37,920 bases of DNA from a phage, in NCBI GenBank assembly GCA_033178465.1, contig GCA_033178465.1_4726.4; one strand, written 5' to 3'. The position numbers and the translations under genes are program-made. The notes under the pieces are model-generated. The model made no database searches, had not been told where the DNA came from, and saw only the letters and a list, made by a program, of their open reading frames with translations. This document shows positions 16,819-28,844 of the stretch, in pieces. Within the stretch, counting starts at the first letter, position 1, and the number at the start of each line of letters is the position of its first letter.

Positions 16819-17361
16819 ATGGCCTTAGACTTTAACAAAGCAGCGAAATCCCTTCTGCTTGATCTTATCAACACCAAAGCGACCCGCACGCTGACCGAAG
16901 AAGAACTGCAGTTCGGTACTCCGGCGGCATCTTCCGAACATTCTAAGAACACCGTTATTCAGCTGGATGCTGCAGTTGGTGCAGAAAACCTGCAGGGTAC
17001 TCAGCAGTTCTACTACGATCGTCTGGCTCTGTCCGACGTTTTCGCTGATGTAACTGGCGATGTTACTTTCGAACTGCCGCACGGTACCGACAGCATCCAG
17101 GCTTCTGAACTGGTAAGCAAGCTGGTCACCAAATTCGGCCTGGCTTCCCTGAACGGTGAAATCAAAGAAGAAACCTTCCAGCTGTCTGCAGGTACTGTTG
17201 CTCAGGTAACTCTGAACGCGATCGAGAATGGCATGGTATATACCGGCACTCTGCAGGTTGCTCTGACCTATGCAGCAGCACCGAAAGATGACCTGGCAAC
17301 CGTTCTGGCGGATAACGTAGCCGATGGCTTCGTGAAACCGACCGTTAGCGTTGTTGGCTAA
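16819..17361 (+). CDS. Highly expressed small paralog-family protein (180 aa), probable major virion component
   Basis: ATG 16819 with AGAGGA upstream; strong bias to CTG, CCG, GGT, AAC and TTC codons (the most host-optimised gene in the window); contains family motifs FYYDRLAL, LVTKFGL and MVYTGTLQV. Confidence 0.75.
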   Translation: MALDFNKAAKSLLLDLINTKATRTLTEEELQFGTPAASSEHSKNTVIQLDAAVGAENLQGTQQFYYDRLALSDVFADVTGDVTFELPHGTDSIQASELVSKLVTKFGLASLNGEIKEETFQLSAGTVAQVTLNAIENGMVYTGTLQVALTYAAAPKDDLATVLADNVADGFVKPTVSVVG

Positions 17362-18302: not shown

Positions 18303-19412
18303 ATGGAGTTACGTGTTTGTAAATGTTGCGGAGTGGAGAAATCTATTATTGAGTTCAAACCTACCACATCCGGGTATTACACAAGAACGTGTAAAAAGTG
18401 TTTGGTGGCATACAAGAAACAATGGAGGAAACTCAACCCAGATAAAGAACGTGCACAAATCAAACGTTATATGGAGAAATGTAAAAACAGAACAGGAGAT
18501 GTTAAGCTGGCTTACATCAGATCGTTGCAACCGGCGCTGCGTGTTAAGGCAAAAATAGACTACCCTGAAAATATTCTTCTCTTACATTGCTTTAAATGCG
18601 ATGGAGTTAAGCCGGTGGATAGTTTTGCTTTGGCTGCTGCTAGACCAACCGGTAGGTCGAATATTTGTCGAGCATGTTTGCAACAACACACCCACAACAG
18701 GAAATATCTCCCTACGGAACAGTTTTATCGGTGCCAACGTTGTGGTAAAACGAAACCAGCCGATCAATTTAGAGATCGATCCTCTGTGATTCGTGGAAAA
18801 CATTCTTACTGTTTAGATTGTGAAAAAGACGTTAAAGAAGAATTGTTGCGACGCAGAACTCCTGAATATCAGATTGAGAAACTAAAAGAGAAAAGTGTAT
18901 TGCTTGCGTGTAAACATGGACTGGATCCGGATAAGCTCTGGAAGAAATGCTCGAGTTGCGGCGAGATAAAACGACCATCCGATTTTTCTCGCAATTGCCG
19001 TGCAATAGATGGATACCAGTCTATTTGTAAACACTGTCGCTCGGCCAGTAGCGAAACATTCGCTGGATTCAGGAGACGTATCCATGCCGCCGTCGGTCAT
19101 GCGACGACCGTTGGTAAACTAACACGTCCTGATACATGCGAAGAGTGTGGCTGTAACGCATACACTGAGGCACACCATGACAACTATCTTAAACCTTTCG
19201 ATGTTCGCTGGTTATGCCGTAGCTGCCATCGTAAAGTCCATTTGAATTACGTATTTGTTGAAATACGTTATTTCAAGGAAAAAGGTTTAACGGTTGAAGA
19301 AGTTGTGCGTCGAGCTTACCCTGACGCTTTTGATTGGGTGGTGGTTAACCCGGAAGATAAGAATGCGCTAGTTATCGTCCGAGTACCACCACAGTTACGA
19401 GAGTTAGATTAA
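18303..19412 (+). CDS. HNH endonuclease with four N-terminal zinc-ribbon-like repeats (homing-endonuclease-like)
   Basis: C-terminal CEECG...HHDNY...WLCRSCHRKVH HNH motif; four repeats of C-x2-C-G-x2-K-x4-F...C-x2-C; visibly AT-richer than neighbours; opposite orientation to both flanking genes; start only 11 bp from the endolysin start. Confidence 0.7.
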   Translation: MELRVCKCCGVEKSIIEFKPTTSGYYTRTCKKCLVAYKKQWRKLNPDKERAQIKRYMEKCKNRTGDVKLAYIRSLQPALRVKAKIDYPENILLLHCFKCDGVKPVDSFALAAARPTGRSNICRACLQQHTHNRKYLPTEQFYRCQRCGKTKPADQFRDRSSVIRGKHSYCLDCEKDVKEELLRRRTPEYQIEKLKEKSVLLACKHGLDPDKLWKKCSSCGEIKRPSDFSRNCRAIDGYQSICKHCRSASSETFAGFRRRIHAAVGHATTVGKLTRPDTCEECGCNAYTEAHHDNYLKPFDVRWLCRSCHRKVHLNYVFVEIRYFKEKGLTVEEVVRRAYPDAFDWVVVNPEDKNALVIVRVPPQLRELD

Positions 19413-19570: not shown

Positions 19571-21619
19571 TCAAATACCTTTGGTTCCCTTCACGTGATG
19601 TGCGATTTCTTCAACCATTGCACGCAGGGCACGAAGCTGTTGGTCGTGTTCGTACCAACCGCCTAACAGAACCCCGCTATACACCATGGTGTCAAGACTT
19701 AACAGTCCTTTATCTGATACGTTGATCATTTCAGGGAACTGTTCTTGAACACGCTGTGCGATAACACCGATCTTCTCGACATCAGGATCGTAGTTGTGAC
19801 GGAAACGGGCAAGCCCGCTGCGCGCCATTTCGCGTAAACGTTCACTGAGAGATTCCGGATGATCTTTCAGATAACGAATGTCGTGTTTACTACGCTCATC
19901 TGAACGGATGTAAGCGTTAGGAACATCGATGTTGCTGTTGAAGTACAGCGCACTACCACCGCCTGCAGAGTTCCCCCAATAGAAGCGTGTGATCTCACCG
20001 CCGCCATTTTCCGTGATGATAACATGTTTACCTAAACGCGTACCACCGTTACCATCAACGAAGACCAGTTTGTTTCCGCTGTAAGAACCCCAGAACAAGC
20101 GTGTATCGATGATGTGTGTTGCAGCGAGACGGGCGTTACGTGGTGTAGAATACACGGTGTTAACATCTTGCTGCGCATGTGCATCGGAAGCGATACCATA
20201 GTTCTGTACGTTACCCAATCCCACCTGCGCTTTTGTAACAGCATGCGGGTTATCCCGACGGTTAGCGTGAGCGTTAACCAGATCACCCGCTAATTTCTGA
20301 ATTGCCCAGTTGGTAGACTGTGGTGTCATGTAACGGTTCGTTGCAGAACCACCTTGCGCTTCAGCTTGGTTAGCGGTTGGGTAGTTCTCAACACTTCCTA
20401 ACCCTACTTGTGCCTTAGACACTTGGTGTGGGTTATTCTTATCGGCGATGTGTGCATTAAGCGGAACTAACGCAAAGGTCTCAATGGACGCTTTGGTTGT
20501 GTTCGGTGCCATTAATCGGTTAGCTGCAACACCAGCACGCGCTTCTTCTTCAGAAGCCATTGGGTAGTCTTGCACATTCCCTAACCCAACCTGTGCTTTG
20601 GTCACCCTGTGTGGGTTGTTGTAATCGGCTTTATGCGCATTAAGCGGAATCAGTGCGAACTGTTCAATCGCTGCAACAGTACGTAGCGGCGTCATGAAAC
20701 GGTTGTTCGCTGTACCCGCTTTTGCTTCAGAGTCCGACGCTGTCGGGAAGTTATCAACGTTCCCAAGGTTAACCTGTGCTTTGGTGACGCTATGCGGGTT
20801 ATCCCGGCGGTTAGCATGCGCGTCGACCAGATCGCCTGCCAGTTTAGCAATCGCCCAGCCAACCGTCTGTGCTGTCATGTAACGGTCAGGTGCAGTACCG
20901 GCTTCTGCCTCCGCCTTGTTTGCGGTAGGGTAGTTCTGTACGTTACCTAGTCCGACTTGGGCTTTTGTTACTTCGTGCGGGTTATCGGTACGGTTAGCAT
21001 GTGCGTAATGCAGATCGGTCAGATCTTTATCCGCCGCTTGCATGTCTTTGCGTAGCTGATCGATTGCCGCCCAGAGACGGTTATCGGACGCAGCATCACC
21101 GATAAGTATTGCAGCTTTTAACGAATAGATCGCTAAGCAAAGATGCTCGGTACCGTAGATGGCGCTAACGTGGTGGATGTGTGGTTCAGGCGGATAGAGT
21201 TCTGGTTTGTTCTTGATGTCGTCCCAGTTGATCGGACGATCGTCAAGTTTGAGTTCTTCGATAGCCTGATATAACGCGTCAATAAGACTTACGTAAACAC
21301 CACCGATGATACGATAGTCGTTAACTAACGTACCCTCGATATCATCGTTGATGATGGCGATGGCTGCACAGATTTCTTTACCAGCGTAAAGCGTAGCGTC
21401 CTGATACAAGAAGATGGGCTTATAATCCACGCCTCGTACCAGTGTCTTACCGGTAAGCTTTTCAGTGATGACCAGACTTTCGGTGAAGAACGGTCCGCCA
21501 TCAAGGGCGTAACATTTATTCTCGGTTCGTGGAACGGTATGCTCTTCACCAACGATGTGGTTGCTGGCGAGTGTACCGGTCCAGTCCTCGGGGTACTTCA
21601 GGGTAATTGGTGTCGACAT
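19571..21619 (-). CDS. Tail fibre protein with about five tandem 61-aa repeats and C-terminal intramolecular-chaperone (peptidase S74-like) domain
   Basis: Five repeats with core NPHxVTKAQVGLGNVxNY...YMTP; C-terminal SDERSKHDIRYLKD...GLLSLDTMVY matches the self-cleaving chaperone domain known from endosialidases and L-shaped tail fibres; N-terminus similar to gene 25306-27459. Confidence 0.8.
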   Translation of the reverse strand: MSTPITLKYPEDWTGTLASNHIVGEEHTVPRTENKCYALDGGPFFTESLVITEKLTGKTLVRGVDYKPIFLYQDATLYAGKEICAAIAIINDDIEGTLVNDYRIIGGVYVSLIDALYQAIEELKLDDRPINWDDIKNKPELYPPEPHIHHVSAIYGTEHLCLAIYSLKAAILIGDAASDNRLWAAIDQLRKDMQAADKDLTDLHYAHANRTDNPHEVTKAQVGLGNVQNYPTANKAEAEAGTAPDRYMTAQTVGWAIAKLAGDLVDAHANRRDNPHSVTKAQVNLGNVDNFPTASDSEAKAGTANNRFMTPLRTVAAIEQFALIPLNAHKADYNNPHRVTKAQVGLGNVQDYPMASEEEARAGVAANRLMAPNTTKASIETFALVPLNAHIADKNNPHQVSKAQVGLGSVENYPTANQAEAQGGSATNRYMTPQSTNWAIQKLAGDLVNAHANRRDNPHAVTKAQVGLGNVQNYGIASDAHAQQDVNTVYSTPRNARLAATHIIDTRLFWGSYSGNKLVFVDGNGGTRLGKHVIITENGGGEITRFYWGNSAGGGSALYFNSNIDVPNAYIRSDERSKHDIRYLKDHPESLSERLREMARSGLARFRHNYDPDVEKIGVIAQRVQEQFPEMINVSDKGLLSLDTMVYSGVLLGGWYEHDQQLRALRAMVEEIAHHVKGTKGI
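20190..21010 (-). repeat. Tandem in-frame repeats, about 183 bp period, 5 copies (tail-fibre repeat)
   Basis: Recurrent plus-strand block resembling GTTCTG-ACGTT-CC-A-CC-AC-TG-GCTTTGGT-AC at about 20198, 20383, 20567, 20750 and 20933. Confidence 0.75.
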
Positions 21620-21632
21620 AACCTGGAGGTCC

Positions 21633-24236
21633 TTATAACGTGACTGTACCTAATTTGGTTGTCTTATTGAGATTAATGACAGAGATCTGGGTATCGCTGG
21701 TCGTGATGGTGCCAATATTAACACGTTGTCCTTTATCATCTTCTTGCTTGTAGATGGTTAACTCCAGTTCTAACTGGTCGCCATTAGGAACAACGGAAAC
21801 GTACCATGTTTTATTACCCGGGGAGCTATTATAGTCTTTTAGGTTATAATGGCCTTTAGGTAAGGTCATGACCTTACCGGCAAACAAGCAAGTGATGTCT
21901 TCGTTGATGTAGATATCGTAGCCGGAAGCAGCAACGACCGTAGAAACCATGTAACGGTTTTTAACGGCGAGAGCTTTATATTCCGCGACGGAATTGCCCA
22001 CGACATTAAAGACTTGACCGCCATTTCCCATCACCGTAGAGACTGCGGTATCAACATAACCGATTCCCCACACCGGATGCACGTTCCAACGATAGCCGTT
22101 TGTCTGTAGGTAAGCATACATCCCTTCAAATGCGATGGTTGTCCAGTTTCCATCGTTCTGCCGTCCAGCTCGGAACTGATAGGTGTTTTGATTTCCTGCA
22201 GACTGACGGGAACACGGAACGTGCCCAGCAACAAGCCATCCATCACTCACCTTCTTGTACGCGAGTACGCCCCACGCAACATCTTGAGTTCCGATATTTG
22301 ATGTATCGCCGTCTTCGACATAACCCAGCAGTTTGGTTACGCCTGTCACGGTGATAGCGCCTTTACGTGCGGATACGGTAACCTCCGCGGCGATTCGTCC
22401 ATGTACGCGTGTTTCGGTATTACAACCAACAACAAACAGAATACAGGGTGCGTTCGTACCGTCTGGAGGTACCGCTAACGCATGCCGCCACCGACTTACC
22501 CCTGATAACTTAGATCCTGTATATGCGTTCCACACAAGCTGACCACCTGCTTGCAGATTCGCTGCGGTTATGCTGATAGCTTCTCCGGAAGGCGTAAGTT
22601 TGGTTGCGTCGTAACCTATTTTGTTTGTTAGGATCACATCGGTTAAATAAGACCCGCTAACTACCGTATTATCGTCGCTTAAATGCACGGTTAGGAAAGG
22701 TAACGACATTTGACCTGTTCTAACCACCACGTTGTTGGAAGGCGGGAAACCGTAAACATCAATACCCTCGCCTTGATAATGGTAGTTGAGGTCCCAGTCA
22801 TAGGTCACTAGACGAGCCTCAAAATTACCCTGTCCGCCACCCGTACGTGAGTTAACGAAAACCTTGTTTTTAGAAAAGAAACCCAGGTAACCATGGGACG
22901 CCAGTGCGCCTACGACACGATCACCGACGTTTTTCCAGTATGAATCGTACTGTATTCCACCAGTAGGACCGAGTTTGGCGAGTTCGTCGAACACGTTTCC
23001 AGAGAAACCGTTGATAGTGTACGATCGCGCTTGGGGGGCGGATAAGTTGTCGTTTTGGATAATGGCTACCTGACCACGTTCGTTGATTTCGATATTCCCG
23101 GTACCGTTACCCGAACCCCATTGCCAGAAACCGTCGTTATATCCGCTTGTCCCTTCCGTTGTGTTGGAAGGTCCTATCCAATCAATACCACTGCTGGTCG
23201 ATGTGTAGGTCGATTGTCCAGCGCCAGGGTTCATGCTGTAACTGTTGTTGGTGGTTTCAAAATCCAAATAGAACTGATGCAGCCCGTTTTTAGATCGGTT
23301 GTTACGGTTGTTCGTCCACCACGCCGAAGCAATCAGAATACGTGCTTTAGTACCTTTGGTTGCTGCGAACATACGAATCTGAGCACGCCAGACGGTTTGA
23401 CCGATCCCGTCAGAAGGGAAATCGTTCGTAGTTATACGGTTGCAGACAATCATCTCGGCACTGTTGCTTATCGCCGTTCCTTCTATCGTTCTACCGCTAA
23501 TATTCGTAAGCTGTGTAGCTGCTACGCTGCCACCGCTGGGACCGATGGAAGATTTCGTTACGGTATAAACATTTAAGTAGAGTTTATAACTGTTAGTGCC
23601 AGCAATAGCGATGTAGATTTTACCGTTAATTTCCCAACAGCAGACATTCGGTGACGTATCAACAAAGTTGGCAAGACTACCATCAAGATACATGGCGACA
23701 TGTTTGGATGCGTCAAACGTTCCGTCTGTCAATGCGATAAACATTTTAGGGCTGCTACCGTCTTCAAAAGCAGCTTGACCTAACATGATACCGTTCTGGT
23801 GACAGTATATCACCGTAGGAATACGATCGAGCGTTGCGGGCTCATAGCGACGGCTGGTTGGAATAACTTCAGTGATCTGTCCGTTTTGATTTGTTTTACA
23901 GATAACGTAGTAAACCCCTTTCTTTACGCTGTTCGTTGCCGAACGCAGTAACACGATAGTGCCGTCGGATTCACGGCATACGCCGTAACGACGGTATTTG
24001 TCGTTTAGACAGATAGCACCATCAGCGGAGCCTTCAATTGCCAGAGGAAAATAACTTTGGTCCCCAACCTGTTCGATATCGGTTACGCCAATATCGATAT
24101 ATTTTTCCATCTCAGCGTTGAACTCAGCGGTACTGTAGGCCCCAAGATCGCTCGCTTTCAGTCCCGTTGGGTTGTCGCGACTGGCGATACGCGTATTAAC
24201 GCTACTCACCAGTTCGCTGAACTTTTTCATTGCCAT
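21633..24236 (-). CDS. Large tail fibre or tailspike-like protein (867 aa), putative receptor-binding protein
   Basis: Lies between the fibre genes; N-terminal KKFSELVSSVNTRIASRDNPTGLKASD resembles the N-termini of the two small downstream genes; Gly/Ser/Thr/Asn-rich beta-type composition; ATG 24236 with GAGGTG upstream. Confidence 0.55.
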   Translation of the reverse strand: MAMKKFSELVSSVNTRIASRDNPTGLKASDLGAYSTAEFNAEMEKYIDIGVTDIEQVGDQSYFPLAIEGSADGAICLNDKYRRYGVCRESDGTIVLLRSATNSVKKGVYYVICKTNQNGQITEVIPTSRRYEPATLDRIPTVIYCHQNGIMLGQAAFEDGSSPKMFIALTDGTFDASKHVAMYLDGSLANFVDTSPNVCCWEINGKIYIAIAGTNSYKLYLNVYTVTKSSIGPSGGSVAATQLTNISGRTIEGTAISNSAEMIVCNRITTNDFPSDGIGQTVWRAQIRMFAATKGTKARILIASAWWTNNRNNRSKNGLHQFYLDFETTNNSYSMNPGAGQSTYTSTSSGIDWIGPSNTTEGTSGYNDGFWQWGSGNGTGNIEINERGQVAIIQNDNLSAPQARSYTINGFSGNVFDELAKLGPTGGIQYDSYWKNVGDRVVGALASHGYLGFFSKNKVFVNSRTGGGQGNFEARLVTYDWDLNYHYQGEGIDVYGFPPSNNVVVRTGQMSLPFLTVHLSDDNTVVSGSYLTDVILTNKIGYDATKLTPSGEAISITAANLQAGGQLVWNAYTGSKLSGVSRWRHALAVPPDGTNAPCILFVVGCNTETRVHGRIAAEVTVSARKGAITVTGVTKLLGYVEDGDTSNIGTQDVAWGVLAYKKVSDGWLVAGHVPCSRQSAGNQNTYQFRAGRQNDGNWTTIAFEGMYAYLQTNGYRWNVHPVWGIGYVDTAVSTVMGNGGQVFNVVGNSVAEYKALAVKNRYMVSTVVAASGYDIYINEDITCLFAGKVMTLPKGHYNLKDYNSSPGNKTWYVSVVPNGDQLELELTIYKQEDDKGQRVNIGTITTSDTQISVINLNKTTKLGTVTL

Positions 24237-24248
24237 TATTCACCTCGA

Positions 24249-24734
24249 TTAAATAGGCGAGTCGGGTAGCTGACCATCATCGATCTCGATGGTGGCCACC
24301 TTACGTGTTGCAGCAAGATGTGATGTACCCTGGATTTTGTTCCAGGTGCCGATACGCATGGCGTTTTTGTAGCTGCTATCGCTATCGTTCAGCGTGTAAA
24401 CAAAACCGCTATCGGTTACGGCAAGATAGATCCAGCCTACAGACTCACTGATGCCCGACACGTCCAAAGTTGCTGCTGGTACCGTCCCTACCACCGTGTT
24501 GTATTCCGCTGTACCTTGACCAATGCTGATCCGTCCGTTGCTGTAAGTGGCTGCCGGAAGCGTTTTATTTCGACTGAAGAAAAGAAACGGAAGGTAACGC
24601 TGAGTAACAAGCGGTGCAAGTTTAGAAGCCACTTCGGTCTTAACGTAGACATCTGTTTGTGCTGGCGTTACCTCGTGAGGGTTCTTTTGGGTAAGATACG
24701 TCCCCCATTCAGAAAGCAGTGTTGATAGCTTCAT
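24249..24734 (-). CDS. Small fibre-associated protein (161 aa) with N-terminal NPHEVTPAQ docking-like motif
   Basis: N-terminus MKLSTLLSEWGTYLTQKNPHEVTPAQTD copies the repeat core of the large fibres; paralog of 24739-25248. Confidence 0.55.
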   Translation of the reverse strand: MKLSTLLSEWGTYLTQKNPHEVTPAQTDVYVKTEVASKLAPLVTQRYLPFLFFSRNKTLPAATYSNGRISIGQGTAEYNTVVGTVPAATLDVSGISESVGWIYLAVTDSGFVYTLNDSDSSYKNAMRIGTWNKIQGTSHLAATRKVATIEIDDGQLPDSPI

Positions 24735-24738
24735 GCGG

Positions 24739-25248
24739 TTACCCCATGTAACGTTTTTGGCCGAGGATGAAGACTTTGTTAAATACCACCGAAGTGATTC
24801 CTGTTGCGTTACAGCTCACCTGCCCGACGCGAATTGCTGTTGATGTATCGACCCCAGCGCTACTCTGCCAGATCCAATCGATCGATCCGTCTTTCTGACG
24901 AATGAAAAGATAACCGGTTTTGTTCGCCCAGTCGGAAGTAAGTTTTTTGATGTCTAGCGTTCCTTTCGCCAGAATATAGTCGGTACCCGCAATCATGACG
25001 GGTATTTCAGGATACGAGATCACCGTACCGCTAGCAGTAACGTTGCTGATGCGATCACTACGAATATCGGTACAATCACCGAAATACGCTACGGGGAGTA
25101 TCCCCTTAGGTAGCTTTTTGCCGATTCTCGTATCGATCGTGTTTTTATCGGGTGCATCGATTTGTGCTGCGGTGACTTGGTTAGGGTTATCCTTCCTTGC
25201 GTACCATGTCGTCATGCGAGCACCCAATTCACTCATTTTTGTGCCCAT
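24739..25248 (-). CDS. Small fibre-associated protein (about 169 aa) with N-terminal DNPNQVTAAQ motif
   Basis: Track ORF begins at GTG 25254; ATG 25248 has AGGA upstream; N-terminus MSELGARMTTWYARKDNPNQVTAAQID. Confidence 0.55.
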   Translation of the reverse strand: MGTKMSELGARMTTWYARKDNPNQVTAAQIDAPDKNTIDTRIGKKLPKGILPVAYFGDCTDIRSDRISNVTASGTVISYPEIPVMIAGTDYILAKGTLDIKKLTSDWANKTGYLFIRQKDGSIDWIWQSSAGVDTSTAIRVGQVSCNATGITSVVFNKVFILGQKRYMG

Positions 25249-25261
25249 TTTCACATCCTAT

Positions 25262-25300
25262 CGAAAAATAAAAAGAAGGAAAGGTGGGTAGAACCCACCC
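25262..25300 (-). terminator. Rho-independent terminator after tail-fibre gene 25306-27459
   Basis: Stem GGTGGGT / ACCCACC with short loop; on the minus strand it is followed by a long T-rich tract (complement of 25262-25282). Confidence 0.7.
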
Positions 25301-25305
25301 ATCCG

Positions 25306-27459
25306 TTATAACGTTTCGAAGTCGGTTGCTTTGATAACCGCGTTGAAGTTGGCAAGGAATTCCTTAAGCAGTGCTTGGAAGACATCACGAAACGCCGTGT
25401 TCGTCTGCAAGCTGGTTAAATAATCGTTCTTAAGGTAATCACTCAGCTTACCGATCTTCTGCATCTTCTCGCCGTCTTGGTTCTCTCCAGGTTCTTGGCT
25501 GTTGATGTTAACCCATTTGATCCCTTCGAGATCGCCATCGGCAAGGAAGTTAGCGGGCGTCTCATCGTCGTTCAGGATTTTAATTGTGTCGCTGGATTCA
25601 ATGCCACCGTAAGCTTCCAGAAGCTGGTTGACTGTTAGCGTGTTGGTGTTGATTGAACCATTGACACCATCAATACCGATGCCTGCACCTGTGATGGATG
25701 TCGCCGAAAGATCGATCGGTCCGGTTAACTTACCACCGTTGATCGGTAACGCACCAACTTGCTCAGCGGTGTGGGTGTGGTTGGCTAACGCCGCAAATGC
25801 CACAATTGACTTGTAAGTCGAGTACGGTGTCATGTACGTCGTTTGGTTAGTCTTGTCGGCAGCTTGCGTGTCGGTGGCGACAGTAAAGTCCTGCACGTTC
25901 CCCAGACCAACTTGAGCCTTGGTTACACCATGGGGGTTGCTCTTATCGACAACGTGTGCTGCAAAACCATCACCTGCTAAAGCGATGATTGCCGCTTTTG
26001 TCGCAGCCGGTGTCATATAGCGGTTGGTTGCTTCACCCGTTTGCGCCTCTTCGTCGGAAGCAACAGGATAGTTCTCAACGCTCCCCAAACCGACCTGAGA
26101 TTTTGTTACTTGGTGTGGGTTTTCGGTATTCGCGATATGACTACTGAACCCTTGACCAGCCAGTTGCTCGATTGCGTAACGAACAAGTATTGGCGTCATG
26201 TACTTGTTGTTAACCTGACCATCGATAGCTTCTTGGGTGGTGGCAACCCCGAAGTTTTGCACGCTCCCCAACCCAACTTGAGCTTTCGTAACAGCGTGGG
26301 GGTTATTGGTGTTACCGATGTGATCGGTAACCGTTGGGGTGATTAATCCTGCGATAGCGGCTGCCGTGGTCGCAGGGGTCATGTATTTATCGTTAGCAAC
26401 ACCCGCAGCAGCTTCTACGTTAGATGCTACACCGTAGTTCAATACATTTCCTAACCCAACTTGAGCTTTGGTTACCCCGTGGGGGTTGTTCTTGTCTCCG
26501 GTATGGGTTGTCAACGTAGCGTTAACGTTATCGATACGCGTGCTTAAGCCATCGGTGATTGCTTTGATTGCGGCTCGTACACCCGCTGGTGTCGTGTACA
26601 GATTGGTGGCCGTACCGGTAATGGTTGCATTACTATCGGCTGTACCGTAGTTCTCAACGTTTCCGAGTCCCACCTGGGCTTTAGTTACCTTGTGTGGGTT
26701 GTTGTAGTTGCTGATGTGCGCAGCAGCACTATCACCACTCAGGTTAGCGATCATCTTACGCGTCATCGCCAACGTCATGTACAGATTTTCACCGATGGTT
26801 TCCAGATCGCTCTCGGTCGCCGTTGTGAAGTTCTGAACATTCCCCAATCCAACTTGAGCCTTGGTTACACCATGGGGGTTATCGCGACGATTCTCGTGTT
26901 GTAGCAATGCGGTCATTGCTTTATTGAACCCTTCTTCAAGCGGTTCTTTCAATGATTCGATTGCCGCCACCACATCGTCCCACGTCATTGTGTCGGTTTC
27001 GACATTATGTTGGTGGTTGATTGGCGGGAATACGGAAGGAACGTCAGCAACCTTTTCCCAGAACGTAACGCGGGGATCGTAAAGGTTGTTGGCTAAAACG
27101 TTAAGAATTTGTTGTTGATCAAGTGTAAACTCACCCCCCAGTGAATAGTAGTTCAGTTGCAACTGTCCACTGAATGCGGTGTCCAACAGCATGATGGAAC
27201 CGTATAATTCCAGGCCGGTCAGCGCAGCCATGGCACGGAAGGGGTGAGTGCATAAAAAGTCAACGCCTTCTTCCAGATACGCGTTTGTTTCAGGGTTGTA
27301 GATCTTTAACCCATTACGAAAATATGGCGCGTATTTAGGAACGAGAAAGTTAAATCCGGTCCCCGTGGAAGGACGGACAGTGACGAGTTCTTCTGGAACC
27401 CATGCGCCATCCAAATTCCCCTGCGGGTTATACGGAAGGCGTTTAATTTCATCTGTCAT
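25306..27459 (-). CDS. Tail fibre protein with about six tandem 61-aa repeats (717 aa)
   Basis: Six repeats with core NPHxVTKAQVGLGNVxN...YMTP; N-terminal domain similar to gene 19571-21619; no S74 domain at the C-terminus. Confidence 0.75.
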   Translation of the reverse strand: MTDEIKRLPYNPQGNLDGAWVPEELVTVRPSTGTGFNFLVPKYAPYFRNGLKIYNPETNAYLEEGVDFLCTHPFRAMAALTGLELYGSIMLLDTAFSGQLQLNYYSLGGEFTLDQQQILNVLANNLYDPRVTFWEKVADVPSVFPPINHQHNVETDTMTWDDVVAAIESLKEPLEEGFNKAMTALLQHENRRDNPHGVTKAQVGLGNVQNFTTATESDLETIGENLYMTLAMTRKMIANLSGDSAAAHISNYNNPHKVTKAQVGLGNVENYGTADSNATITGTATNLYTTPAGVRAAIKAITDGLSTRIDNVNATLTTHTGDKNNPHGVTKAQVGLGNVLNYGVASNVEAAAGVANDKYMTPATTAAAIAGLITPTVTDHIGNTNNPHAVTKAQVGLGSVQNFGVATTQEAIDGQVNNKYMTPILVRYAIEQLAGQGFSSHIANTENPHQVTKSQVGLGSVENYPVASDEEAQTGEATNRYMTPAATKAAIIALAGDGFAAHVVDKSNPHGVTKAQVGLGNVQDFTVATDTQAADKTNQTTYMTPYSTYKSIVAFAALANHTHTAEQVGALPINGGKLTGPIDLSATSITGAGIGIDGVNGSINTNTLTVNQLLEAYGGIESSDTIKILNDDETPANFLADGDLEGIKWVNINSQEPGENQDGEKMQKIGKLSDYLKNDYLTSLQTNTAFRDVFQALLKEFLANFNAVIKATDFETL
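25880..26930 (-). repeat. Tandem in-frame repeats, about 180-190 bp period, 6 copies (tail-fibre repeat)
   Basis: Recurrent plus-strand block at about 25888, 26075, 26253, 26438, 26650 and 26830; source of the repeated antisense pseudo-ORFs in the track. Confidence 0.75.
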
Positions 27460-27563: not shown

Positions 27564-28844
27564 ATGTATACATTGGTAAAAACTTACGGATTACCCGTAG
27601 GTTCTGGCACGGCCTGGACAGCGCTTGAGGCGGGTGAAAGTGTCCTGAGTACGTTGTTCTCAACGTATCAAAAACTCAAGATCCAGGTCCATGAAAGTTA
27701 TGCTGATCAGCAACAAGTTATTGATCTGTACGCGTTCCAATCCGAGCTTCAAAACAGTAGCGATACGCTTAATGCGTGGCTGAAGGCGAAATCGGATGCG
27801 CACACCAACCTTCGAGGACAGCCTGGTGAACTGTCGATTAAAACCCACAAGCTTTATTGCCATGACGTTGTTACTGTAGGCTTTCTCCCTAAAGTCGGTA
27901 ATAGCGGTTATCATCCGAGCAACGCGATCCCTGAGTCGGAACGCACCGATATCCTGTTGACGAAAGCGAATACGAATTACGAAAATATCGGCAAACACTG
28001 CTTGTTCACCGTAGGCGGTTATGTTCATCCTCACGTCTACGGTAAAGACGTTGGTGTCTATATCCAAGGTGGGTTCAAGACGGCACAGCGTAGCCAAGAA
28101 AACGATATCGGCATGATTGATTTTAGCCGTATCGGGAGTTTGGAAATCCATGCTATCACAGAAGAGATGATTGCTGATTCCACGAAGCTCTTGCCGTATA
28201 AGGACGAGATGTACTTGCGGTTACCGCGAAAGGTCGCCGAAGATGAAACCGTCGCGCTGGTGTTCGGGGGATATTTACATCTTCTTGACGATTGTTACAC
28301 GATCGTTAGTGACACGACAGCGAAAATAAACTGCATTAACATGTTTCTTTATGAAAGATACTTCCGTTCCCGCAAATACCTTGATCTAACATCTCTTGGT
28401 ATTCTGTTGACTGAGGAAGACCCACAGTCCGACATTGTTGCCAATCGTTTATTGTCCGATAAAGCATTAAAAGCGTGGGTGACGCATCCTTGCAGTTTCT
28501 GGGTGTATATCAAAGCAACATCAATTCAGGTTACACAAGAACCTTTGCCACGAAGTGGTGTACCAGGACAATATTTCTTAGGTAAGAAACCGGAAGGATT
28601 GATTCGAGCTGATCTCGGCGAGTTACCGGCTTACGTGCAGACCTATGAAAAACCGTTATGGGTACTTCACTCGCGCTGGGGACTTCGTAAAAACATGCTG
28701 TTTGAAAACACATTGTACAAACATACCCGCGTTAAGCGGCTTAACGATACGCCTTATCTTCACCAGGTCTGGTTGGAAACGCATGCAACGTTGCAGACAG
28801 TACACAAGCTTGAATTGATCGATTCCAGTCAGAAAAACAAATAA
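27564..28844 (+). CDS. Hypothetical protein (426 aa), lone plus-strand gene inside the structural block
   Basis: ATG 27564 with AGGGGG about 9 nt upstream; no motif recognised. Confidence 0.6.
   Translation: MYTLVKTYGLPVGSGTAWTALEAGESVLSTLFSTYQKLKIQVHESYADQQQVIDLYAFQSELQNSSDTLNAWLKAKSDAHTNLRGQPGELSIKTHKLYCHDVVTVGFLPKVGNSGYHPSNAIPESERTDILLTKANTNYENIGKHCLFTVGGYVHPHVYGKDVGVYIQGGFKTAQRSQENDIGMIDFSRIGSLEIHAITEEMIADSTKLLPYKDEMYLRLPRKVAEDETVALVFGGYLHLLDDCYTIVSDTTAKINCINMFLYERYFRSRKYLDLTSLGILLTEEDPQSDIVANRLLSDKALKAWVTHPCSFWVYIKATSIQVTQEPLPRSGVPGQYFLGKKPEGLIRADLGELPAYVQTYEKPLWVLHSRWGLRKNMLFENTLYKHTRVKRLNDTPYLHQVWLETHATLQTVHKLELIDSSQKNK

Follow-up and report, generated by a model that had tools for sequence, protein, structure and literature searches.

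The window, that is, the whole stretch of DNA analysed here, comprises 37,920 nucleotides (nt) of a phage contig (GCA_033178465.1_4726.4; NCBI GenBank assembly GCA_033178465.1). It holds a tail fibre locus in which two fibre genes flank three genes for proteins, p169, p161 and p867, that have no recognizable baseplate anchor and begin with a segment resembling the repeats of the fibre shaft. These three proteins are the subject of this analysis. Positions 19571 to 27459 were 95.5% identical to the DNA of Escherichia phage vB_EcoM_Goslar, a jumbo phage of the Chimalliviridae that forms a nucleus and has a genome of 237 kb, and cover Goslar gp025 to gp029. All five genes lie on the minus strand. 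First in the direction of transcription is the gene for f717 (25306..27459), an anchored fibre of 717 amino acids (aa) that corresponds to Goslar gp029 and is the positional and sequence counterpart of gp131 of phage phiKZ. It is followed by the genes for the small anchorless p169 (24739..25248; Goslar gp028), which is 169 aa long when read from an ATG with the ribosome-binding site AGGA 7 nt on its 5′ side and 171 aa long when read from an alternative GTG start at 25254, for the second small anchorless protein, p161 (24249..24734; Goslar gp027; 161 aa), for the large anchorless p867 (21633..24236; Goslar gp026; 867 aa) and for a second anchored fibre, f682 (19571..21619; Goslar gp025; 682 aa), the counterpart of phiKZ gp135. 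A gene on the plus strand (27564..28844; Goslar gp030) is transcribed divergently from the fibre operon, and its product matched phiKZ gp130 in a BLASTP search with 24% identity over 343 aa (E = 1e-26). In phiKZ, gp130 is a baseplate protein, and the fibres attach beneath it (PMC13250141). The N-terminal domain of f717 (~170 aa) was 28% identical to that of gp131 (E = 2.4e-29), and that of f682 was 31% identical to gp135 (E = 8e-28). Since the divergent gene is homologous to gp130 and the N-terminal domains of both fibres match gp131 and gp135, the locus is the counterpart of phiKZ gp130 to gp135.

The two fibres have a common layout. In f717, an N-terminal anchor domain (aa 1 to 170, nt 26950 to 27459) is followed by six shaft repeats of ~61 aa each (aa ~180 to 568, nt 25756 to 26922), a half unit (HTHTAEQVGA) and a C-terminal domain that ends in helices; in f682, five shaft repeats lie between an N-terminal anchor domain and the intramolecular chaperone Peptidase_S74 at the C terminus (Pfam; aa 573 to 631, nt 19727 to 19903). 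The consensus of the repeats in both fibres is H-x5-NPHxVTKAQVGLGNVxNY..A...EA..G.....YMTP.....AI, which we call type-B. A hidden Markov model (HMM) of the anchor domain (~170 aa, ending in W..I..kP..fPP.pH.H) matched f717 and f682 with E values of ~1e-62, and it matched none of p169, p161 and p867 (best E values, 0.4 to 0.9). In Goslar-like phages, the baseplate anchor and the repeat shaft thus appear to be confined to the two flanking fibres.

The N-terminal module and its relation to fibre shafts

The original prediction was that three proteins of this locus carry, at their N termini, a segment of the pattern (D/K)NP..VT.AQ.D that mimics the core of the neighbouring shaft repeats, either as a docking motif or by common ancestry. 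Three open reading frames (ORFs) with a motif near each N terminus were indeed present. The pattern itself is literal in p169 (NP loop KDNPNQVTAAQID, aa 19 to 31, nt 25156 to 25194) and in p161 (motif segment QKNPHEVTPAQTD, aa 16 to 28; NP loop KNPHEVTPAQTD, nt 24651 to 24686), whereas p867 (motif segment RDNPTGLKASDLG, aa 20 to 32; NP loop DNPTGLKASDLG, nt 24141 to 24176) keeps only the NP and the spacing. In all three proteins the motif is part of a common module of 55 to 75 aa that is made up of an amphipathic helix, an NPxxVTxAQ loop, a short helix and an LPxxxFG neck; on the minus strand it occupies nt 25075 to 25248 in p169 (aa 1 to 58), nt 24570 to 24734 in p161 (aa 1 to 55) and nt 24015 to 24236 in p867 (aa 1 to 74). 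Read directly from the sequences, the N-terminal helices have hydrophobic residues at 3-4-3 spacing, as for a helical bundle (M5, L8, M12 and W15 in p169). The neck after the second helix reads LPxxxF(G/S) or QVGD, and the same neck is found in relatives in which the distal domain is fused to a fibre. Each of the three genes begins at the first start codon after a stop, no upstream extension is possible, and the module is therefore truly N-terminal.

An HMM of the 11 full shaft repeats was searched against the 264 stop-to-stop segments of the window. p161 (E = 0.0012) and p169 (E = 0.01) ranked right behind the two fibres; p867 was not significant among these segments (E = 3.3). In profile-profile comparisons, the repeats matched the p169 family with an E value of 2.9e-5 over 22 columns, the p161 family with 7.2e-5 over 14 columns and the N terminus of p867 with 2.5e-3, which is weak but in the correct register. 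The repeat profile gave no N-terminal match to the full-length alignment of the p867 family, and p867 is linked to the repeats only via its N-terminal sub-alignment and an HMM of the N-terminal module. The N termini also matched one another (p169 versus p867, E = 2.4e-7 over 55 columns; p169 versus p161, E = 1.8e-6 over 52 columns). The module HMM was derived from residues 1 to 60 of 20 small proteins that have no anchor, with p161, p867 and the fibres excluded. It scored p867 with 34.7 bits (aa 3 to 60) and p161 with 33.0 bits (aa 2 to 54), recognized the N termini of the counterparts of p161 and p867 in other phages and found all 11 repeats of the fibres, with six matches of 12 to 20 bits in f717 and five of 10 to 19 bits in f682. 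Judged by these alignment statistics, which uphold the predicted resemblance, the N-terminal similarity is beyond chance and spans a helix-loop-helix module, not just the 9-residue core.

That the motif-coding segments are recombination sites at which alternative tips are fused to a fibre, as in cassette or phase variation, was considered because fibre genes are known mosaics and the motif lies exactly at the boundary of shaft and tip. This idea was rejected as scarcely credible: motif and repeat DNA are only 32 to 49% identical, with exact runs of no more than 9 nt, the ORFs are translated, each from a start codon of its own, they all point the same way, and there is no recombinase nearby.

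A word-indexed homology search returned only close relatives, and an exhaustive profile search reached further. Against 1.84 billion representative proteins, the p169 family profile gave 123 matches in four groups: small anchorless proteins of 158 to 198 aa that start ~20 residues before the NP; proteins of ~225 to 245 aa that have an additional coiled coil at the N terminus as well as an ADNAxxLxG segment; p867-like proteins of 880 to 1020 aa that are matched at both ends; and multi-repeat fibres with five to seven matches each from profile positions 6 to 44. The fibres of the last group consist of a unit, H-x5-NPHxVTAAQVGAYTKAEVD, that we call type-A. The module HMM scored type-A units with 36 to 57 bits over ~40 positions, whereas the type-B repeats of the phage's own fibres reached 10 to 20 bits over ~22 positions, and there the match is confined to the part that holds the helix end and NPHxVTKAQVG. 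Since the module scores higher on type-A than on type-B units, it is a widespread shaft building block and not a specific imitation of the neighbouring repeats.

The NPH unit is very widespread in phage fibres, yet it has no solved structure that can be detected by sequence: f717, p867, the p169 family profile and the type-A unit profile retrieved no relevant PDB entry. The AYTKxExD part of the type-A unit had weak matches in a cell-surface protein (9gh4) and in a fragment, fused to GCN4, of a conserved hypothetical protein (7oac). This stretch begins the second helix (aa 35 to 45) in the model of p169 described below.

phiKZ also encodes a shaft unit that stands alone. gp132 (110 aa, annotated as a structural protein; L008 10811-11143) is anchorless and consists of one helix and a single full type-B repeat (HIAARGNPHNLQPSDIGLGNVANYRPAT...YMTP). 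The phiKZ virion atlas gives gp132 no place (PMC13250141), and BLASTP detected no similarity between gp132 and p169. By its sequence, gp132 is a precedent for shaft units that are made as separate polypeptides.

With type-A units as the closer relatives, the predicted specific mimicry of the phage's own shaft was not supported. In its strict form this would mean that the peptide imitates the repeat core and attaches to the side of the shaft of f717 or f682 or inserts into it. The NPHxVTKAQ core is common to both, across the phages that keep N-terminal modules no part of the fibres but the shaft repeats and anchor domains is conserved, and the free single-repeat gp132 suggests that shaft units may assemble in trans. 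Nevertheless, strict mimicry is improbable: in addition to the weak scores on the phage's own repeats, the module has no second repeat half (GLGNVxNY...YMTP), a closed trimeric shaft has no obvious slot for it, and the ratio of ~1:6 between these proteins and the fibres in virions (see below) argues against decoration along a multi-repeat shaft.

Distal domains of p169, p161 and p867

The AlphaFold2 model of p169, calculated from 39 sequences, had a mean predicted local distance difference test score (pLDDT) of 85.7 and consists of a helix (residues 2 to 17), the loop that bears the NP, a second helix (residues 35 to 45) and a beta-sandwich (residues 53 to 168). Its best structural matches among solved structures (Foldseek, probability 1.0) were the tail fibre of cyanophage A-1(L) (8kec) and the head of the receptor-binding protein (RBP) of lactococcal phage p2 (2wzp, 1zru and 2bsd), with template modelling (TM) scores of 0.38 to 0.45, sequence identities of 12 to 18% and E values of 1e-3 to 6e-2, which are marginal; for the p2-type RBP head, the TM score was only 0.44 and the E value 6e-3. 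The N-terminal attachment parts of both proteins are unrelated to that of p169. Among predicted viral structures (BFVD), the model matched small jumbo-phage proteins, the C-terminal ends of "virion structural proteins" of 850 to 1250 aa and, with E values of ~4e-4, Lactococcus RBPs. These matches of a predicted fold support a role of p169 as a receptor-binding tip.

p169 also matched phrog_26864 (E = 7.9e-10, aa 22 to 168), and p867 matched phrog_3573 (E = 4.4e-79, aa 25 to 864); both PHROGs hold structural proteins of jumbo phages, small ones in phrog_26864 and large ones in phrog_3573. p161 had no match among the PHROGs. The p161 and p169 families matched each other with an E value of 2.8e-5 over 121 columns (hhalign), and by this alignment p161 is a divergent paralogue of p169. 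The C-terminal domain of p867 (aa 767 to 864, nt 21645 to 21938) matched the p169 sandwich with an E value of 2.5e-6. As far as sequence comparison goes, the small proteins resemble the large one in miniature, with the same N-terminal module and a related C-terminal domain. The AlphaFold2 model of p867 had a mean pLDDT of 62.9 and was confident at residues ~130 to 300 and 530 to 700; in Foldseek it matched beta-propeller glycosidases of family GH43, sialidases and lectins. Pfam gave nothing for p169, p161 and p867 except a sub-threshold Lyase_8 match in p161. From the predicted models, a receptor-binding or glycan-processing role for the bodies of the three proteins is a reasonable inference, and the label of accessory receptor-binding proteins, used in the original prediction, suits the predicted folds of p169 and p867.

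The same distal domains occur fused to a shaft in other phages. In Erwinia phage RAY (Agricanvirus), gp18 (420 aa) and gp19 (1163 aa) each consist of an anchor domain and one full repeat, followed by a p169-like domain in gp18 and by a p867-like domain in gp19. The start of phrog_3573 (1001 positions) matches f717 aa 102 to 238 and is followed by p867 aa 25 to 864. In gp18, gp19 and phrog_3573, the domains of p169 and p867 stand after an NPH unit and an LPxxxFG neck; in contrast to p169 and p867, which start at the unit, gp18 and gp19 are single polypeptides with their own anchor and a full repeat. In phiKZ, the shafts of gp131, gp133, gp134 and gp135 end with a type-A unit (NPHxVTAxQxxxYTK) directly before the distal domain, as in gp131, where NENNPHVVTADQVNAYTKTQVDQLL stands directly before the propeller. 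In the fused versions, no further shaft element stands between this unit and the distal domain, which places the unit at the junction of shaft and tip, and in Goslar-like phages the distal domains appear to be made as separate polypeptides that begin exactly at this unit. Since p169, p161 and p867 have neither anchor nor shaft and start at the last shaft unit, they are distal fibre modules. The homology to shaft units, the RAY fusions, the span of phrog_3573 and the type-A units of phiKZ bear out the second alternative of the original prediction, and common ancestry of the module with shaft units is strongly supported by these alignments.

The size of p169 and p161 (161 to 169 aa) and their place right behind a fibre gene are typical of fibre assembly chaperones and of gp38-like adhesins, which would bind the tip of the fibre or of p867 instead of being fibre segments themselves, and the pairing of a small with a large protein is conserved. 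However, neither p169 nor p161 matched the Tfa/Caudo_TAP or gp38 families in Pfam or PHROG, their C-terminal domain forms the distal end of the anchored RAY gp18 and of p867, and the p169 model resembles an RBP head. Furthermore, they have the N-terminal shaft unit in common with p867 and are present in the virion preparation at the level of p867. A chaperone or gp38-like function is therefore quite improbable.

Conservation, virion association and the proposed docking role

The arrangement of an anchored fibre followed by a small and a large protein recurs outside the Goslar-like phages. Serratia phage PCH45 has the order fibre-159-887-353-fibre, in which the 159-aa protein starts with ...RRDNPNEVTAAQAGAYSK and the 887-aa protein with ...SKSNPGQVTAAQLGSYSK; Salmonella phage SPLA10 has the order fibre-182-875-160-906-fibre, with the module in all four middle proteins; and PhiEaH1 and pEa_SNUABM_54 likewise have fibre, small and large, as far as their gene layout alone tells. 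A metagenomic contig encodes an anchored fibre, a 185-aa protein and a large one, and another contig, on which no anchored fibre gene was seen, encodes a large and then a small protein, both N-extended. The fibre genes of a distant Goslar-like contig are rearranged: they lie side by side, and a trio of 168, 153 and 864 aa follows as a block, with 41%, 36% and 34% identity to p169, p161 and p867, respectively. A census of architectures by regular expression undercounts N-extended members and was used only qualitatively.

In the p169 and p867 families, the module is also well conserved in sequence. In 10 homologues of p169 (79 to 95% identity), the first 29 residues vary only at alignment positions 14, 17 and 30, and in the p169 family the module is the most conserved of 112 windows of 58 residues. 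In the p867 family (34 to 96% identity), the first 74 residues rank third among 794 windows and hold 33 invariant columns; distant members are 58% identical there and 34% identical elsewhere. In a wider alignment of 39 sequences, N21 and P22 are the sole invariant residues. The NP-loop variants NPN, NPH and NPT are each a paralogue's own and are kept in its orthologues. In SPLA10 (L004 4760-11174), the residue after NP matches within pairs: the 182- and 875-aa proteins both have NPT, and the 160- and 906-aa proteins both have NPH. This hints at co-variation of partners, in two pairs only and in a pattern that is not found in Goslar or PCH45.

Published data place all three proteins in virion preparations, as the original prediction requires. 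In CsCl-purified Goslar virions, all five proteins of the locus were detected by mass spectrometry (Table S4), the fibres with 34 peptides and 51% coverage (gp029) and 44 peptides and 59% coverage (gp025), and the others with 10 peptides and 61% coverage (gp028), 5 peptides and 36% coverage (gp027) and 21 peptides and 32% coverage (gp026) (doi 10.64898/2026.04.21.720040). The copy numbers by label-free quantification (LFQ; low/median/high estimate) were 50/75/118 for gp029, 58/87/136 for gp025, 9.5/14/22 for gp028, 9.2/14/22 for gp027 and 8.5/13/20 for gp026 (doi 10.64898/2026.04.21.720040). From these values, the ratio gp028:gp027:gp026 is ~1:1:1, and the abundance of each is about one sixth of that of either fibre. 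The scatter of LFQ is large (6-copy proteins read 2 to 11 in the low estimate and a 48-copy protein read 119), and 6, 12 and 18 copies are therefore indistinguishable. In the published proteome, gp026 to gp028 are unnamed rows that are not discussed (doi 10.64898/2026.04.21.720040), and we found no paper on the three proteins or their N-terminal module.

Since the module is top-conserved in the p169 and p867 families (1/112 and 3/794), docking or oligomerization is favoured, and it is, on sequence grounds, the most plausible function of the module in general. Specifically, we propose that p169, p161 and p867 are anchorless receptor-binding tips of chimallivirus fibres and that each retained one shaft unit as an oligomerization and attachment handle; we give this reading a probability of roughly 0.6. 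The retained unit would form a short trimeric stalk, helical or beta, by which the tips would be joined to the anchored fibre complex, possibly in the manner of the end-to-end distal joints of T4 fibres or of secondary RBPs that dock via a short conserved N-terminal peptide.

Alternatively, the unit could be a mere remnant of an ancestral shaft that serves at most as a stalk for self-trimerization, with attachment via other surfaces or a separate adaptor. Three findings fit this: the module is a generic type-A unit common to many unrelated fibres, the true means of attachment could be the additional coiled-coil segments at the N termini of the N-extended relatives, and no partner surface was found, as conservation between Goslar and PCH45 does not extend to the C-terminal domain of the upstream fibre. 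We consider a vestige unlikely, since p169 and p867 are best conserved at the extreme N terminus, even at 34 to 41% overall identity, and nothing N-terminal to the module in p169, p161 and p867 could serve as an anchor.

Several observations weigh against a docking handle. First, the six-fold lower abundance means that the accessory proteins are not present one-to-one on every fibre chain. Second, the Goslar virion preparation also held the non-virion assemblies chimallin and PhuZ (doi 10.64898/2026.04.21.720040), and detection by mass spectrometry is therefore strong but not absolute evidence for a place in the virion. Third, the tail fibres and the peripheral baseplate are unresolved in the Goslar maps (doi 10.64898/2026.04.21.720040), and the phiKZ fibres were fitted only at their N-terminal segments, by rigid-body docking of predicted models (PMC13250141). 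Fourth, the module of p161 is not unusually conserved (rank 13 of 107), and the N terminus of the p867 model, which shows the same helix-loop-helix, is of low confidence. Finally, conservation between Goslar and PCH45 covers the N-terminal modules but not the C-terminal domain of f717, an obvious candidate for docking; only the anchor domain and the shaft are conserved in the fibres wherever the module occurs. Within the Goslar-like phages, the extreme C terminus of f717 (~55 aa, nt 25306 to 25480; KIGKLSDYLK...IKATDFE) is kept in a relative with 55% overall identity while the region between diverges, and this helical-looking end is a candidate interaction surface, as judged from its sequence; the PCH45 fibre lacks the motif.

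In the phiKZ virion atlas, twelve fibres lie beneath gp130, and the base of a fibre was modelled with six N-terminal domains similar to that of gp131 (three of gp131 and one each of gp133, gp134 and gp135) and a six-helix bundle (PMC13250141). The locus analysed here is syntenic and homologous, with NPH units in both systems and a type-A unit directly before the distal domain; gp131 has a distal beta-propeller and p867 a propeller-type predicted fold; the genes for p169, p161 and p867 lie in the operon that diverges from the gp130 homologue, and the Goslar orthologues of these proteins are in the virion preparation. Unlike p169, p161 and p867, gp133, gp134 and gp135 keep the N-terminal anchor domain. 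Therefore, the three proteins cannot join the fibre base in the way modelled for phiKZ.

A parallel in design is found in the branched RBPs of Klebsiella phages KP32, K11 and KP34, in which experiments showed that docking takes place through a conserved N-terminal peptide (PMC6872550, PMC13352976). In both cases, secondary RBPs with a short conserved N terminus and no anchor accompany a primary RBP that is anchored. The systems have no sequence relation, however, and the proposed handle here is derived from a shaft repeat; furthermore, no T4gp10-like branching domain was detected in f717 or f682 by Pfam, in which Peptidase_S74 of f682 was the sole significant match and which was not complemented by a structure-based search with the fibres. 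The long tail fibre of T4 (gp34-gp35-gp36-gp37) also follows this principle: the proximal protein alone binds the baseplate, and the distal proteins are separate, gene-ordered and N-terminally joined. There, the joints are stoichiometric on every fibre, whereas the accessory proteins here reach about one sixth of the fibres; no homology to the T4 long tail fibre was found, and no search was aimed at it. The general design of an anchored primary fibre with anchorless secondary RBPs is thus already known; what differs here is the origin of the proposed handle from a shaft unit, along with the phage group.

The near-equal amounts of the three proteins would also fit a more specific arrangement, a 1:1:1 heterotrimer of p169, p161 and p867 (two small subunits and one large) that plugs in trans into the anchored fibre complex. 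The three N-terminal units would then form one pseudo-shaft unit and the three C-terminal domains one knob, from which the single propeller body of p867 would protrude. Consistent with this, the low LFQ estimates of 9.5, 9.2 and 8.5 are nearly identical despite a five-fold difference in size, the pairing of small and large proteins is conserved even outside the Goslar-like phages, N- and C-terminal modules are common to both, the paralogue-specific NPN, NPH and NPT loops are kept in orthologues, and in phiKZ gp133, gp134 and gp135 were modelled 1:1:1 and gp132 is a free single unit. Three homotrimers in equal numbers would explain these data equally well, and the scatter of LFQ leaves its copy numbers unable to separate the two arrangements; the heterotrimer is a tentative idea that we regard as rather unlikely. 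If it were true, separate polypeptides would contribute the shaft units of which chimallivirus fibres are made.

None of this overturns anything established. The tail fibres and the peripheral baseplate are the parts left unresolved in both published chimallivirus virion structures (Goslar and phiKZ), and gp026 to gp028 are three candidates for the unassigned fibre density, with an element of ~55 residues that can be mutated or swapped. Should the module be a docking handle, host-range retargeting of nucleus-forming jumbo phages would have a natural plug-in point in it; a conserved docking peptide has already been used in this way in Klebsiella podophages.

Other features of the locus

The 57-nt gap between the genes for f717 and p169 contains a strong hairpin on the minus strand that resembles an intrinsic terminator (25272..25300; GGGTGGGTTCTACCCACC, followed by a T-rich tail) with an 8-bp stem that includes five GC pairs. 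It heads the list of terminator-like sites in the locus and had no match among the terminators annotated in the stretch of Goslar examined. This putative terminator could attenuate transcription into the genes for gp028 to gp026, which would fit their roughly six-fold lower abundance, but gp025, the fibre encoded further downstream, reaches the abundance of gp029.

The repeats of f717 are spaced by 60, 71, 61, 61 and 61 residues (nt 26485 to 26880, aa 194 to 325), with ~10 extra residues in the second unit (…ITDGLSTRIDNVNATLTTH…). The positions of the NPH motifs in a distant relative, X724 (194, 325, 386 and 507), agree with this layout. In the distant Goslar-like contig, the orthologue of f682 is 64% identical through the shaft and has an unrelated C-terminal domain; tips are therefore exchanged downstream of the shaft.

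Between the endolysin gene and the gene for f682, an ORF on the plus strand (18303..19412) encodes a Cys-rich protein of 369 aa with a Stc1 zinc-finger domain (Pfam, E = 1.3e-7) and, read by eye, an HNH-like pattern at its C terminus (EAHHDNY...CRSCHRKVH). Since the corresponding gap in Goslar is only 126 nt long, this looks like an inserted gene for a free-standing, possibly homing, endonuclease. Also near the fibre locus, the plus strand encodes a DUF7941 protein (16819..17361; Pfam, E = 1e-20) that is homologous to Goslar gp023. The latter is present in more than 1400 copies per virion and was proposed to form a "fibre cloud" on the peripheral baseplate (doi 10.64898/2026.04.21.720040).

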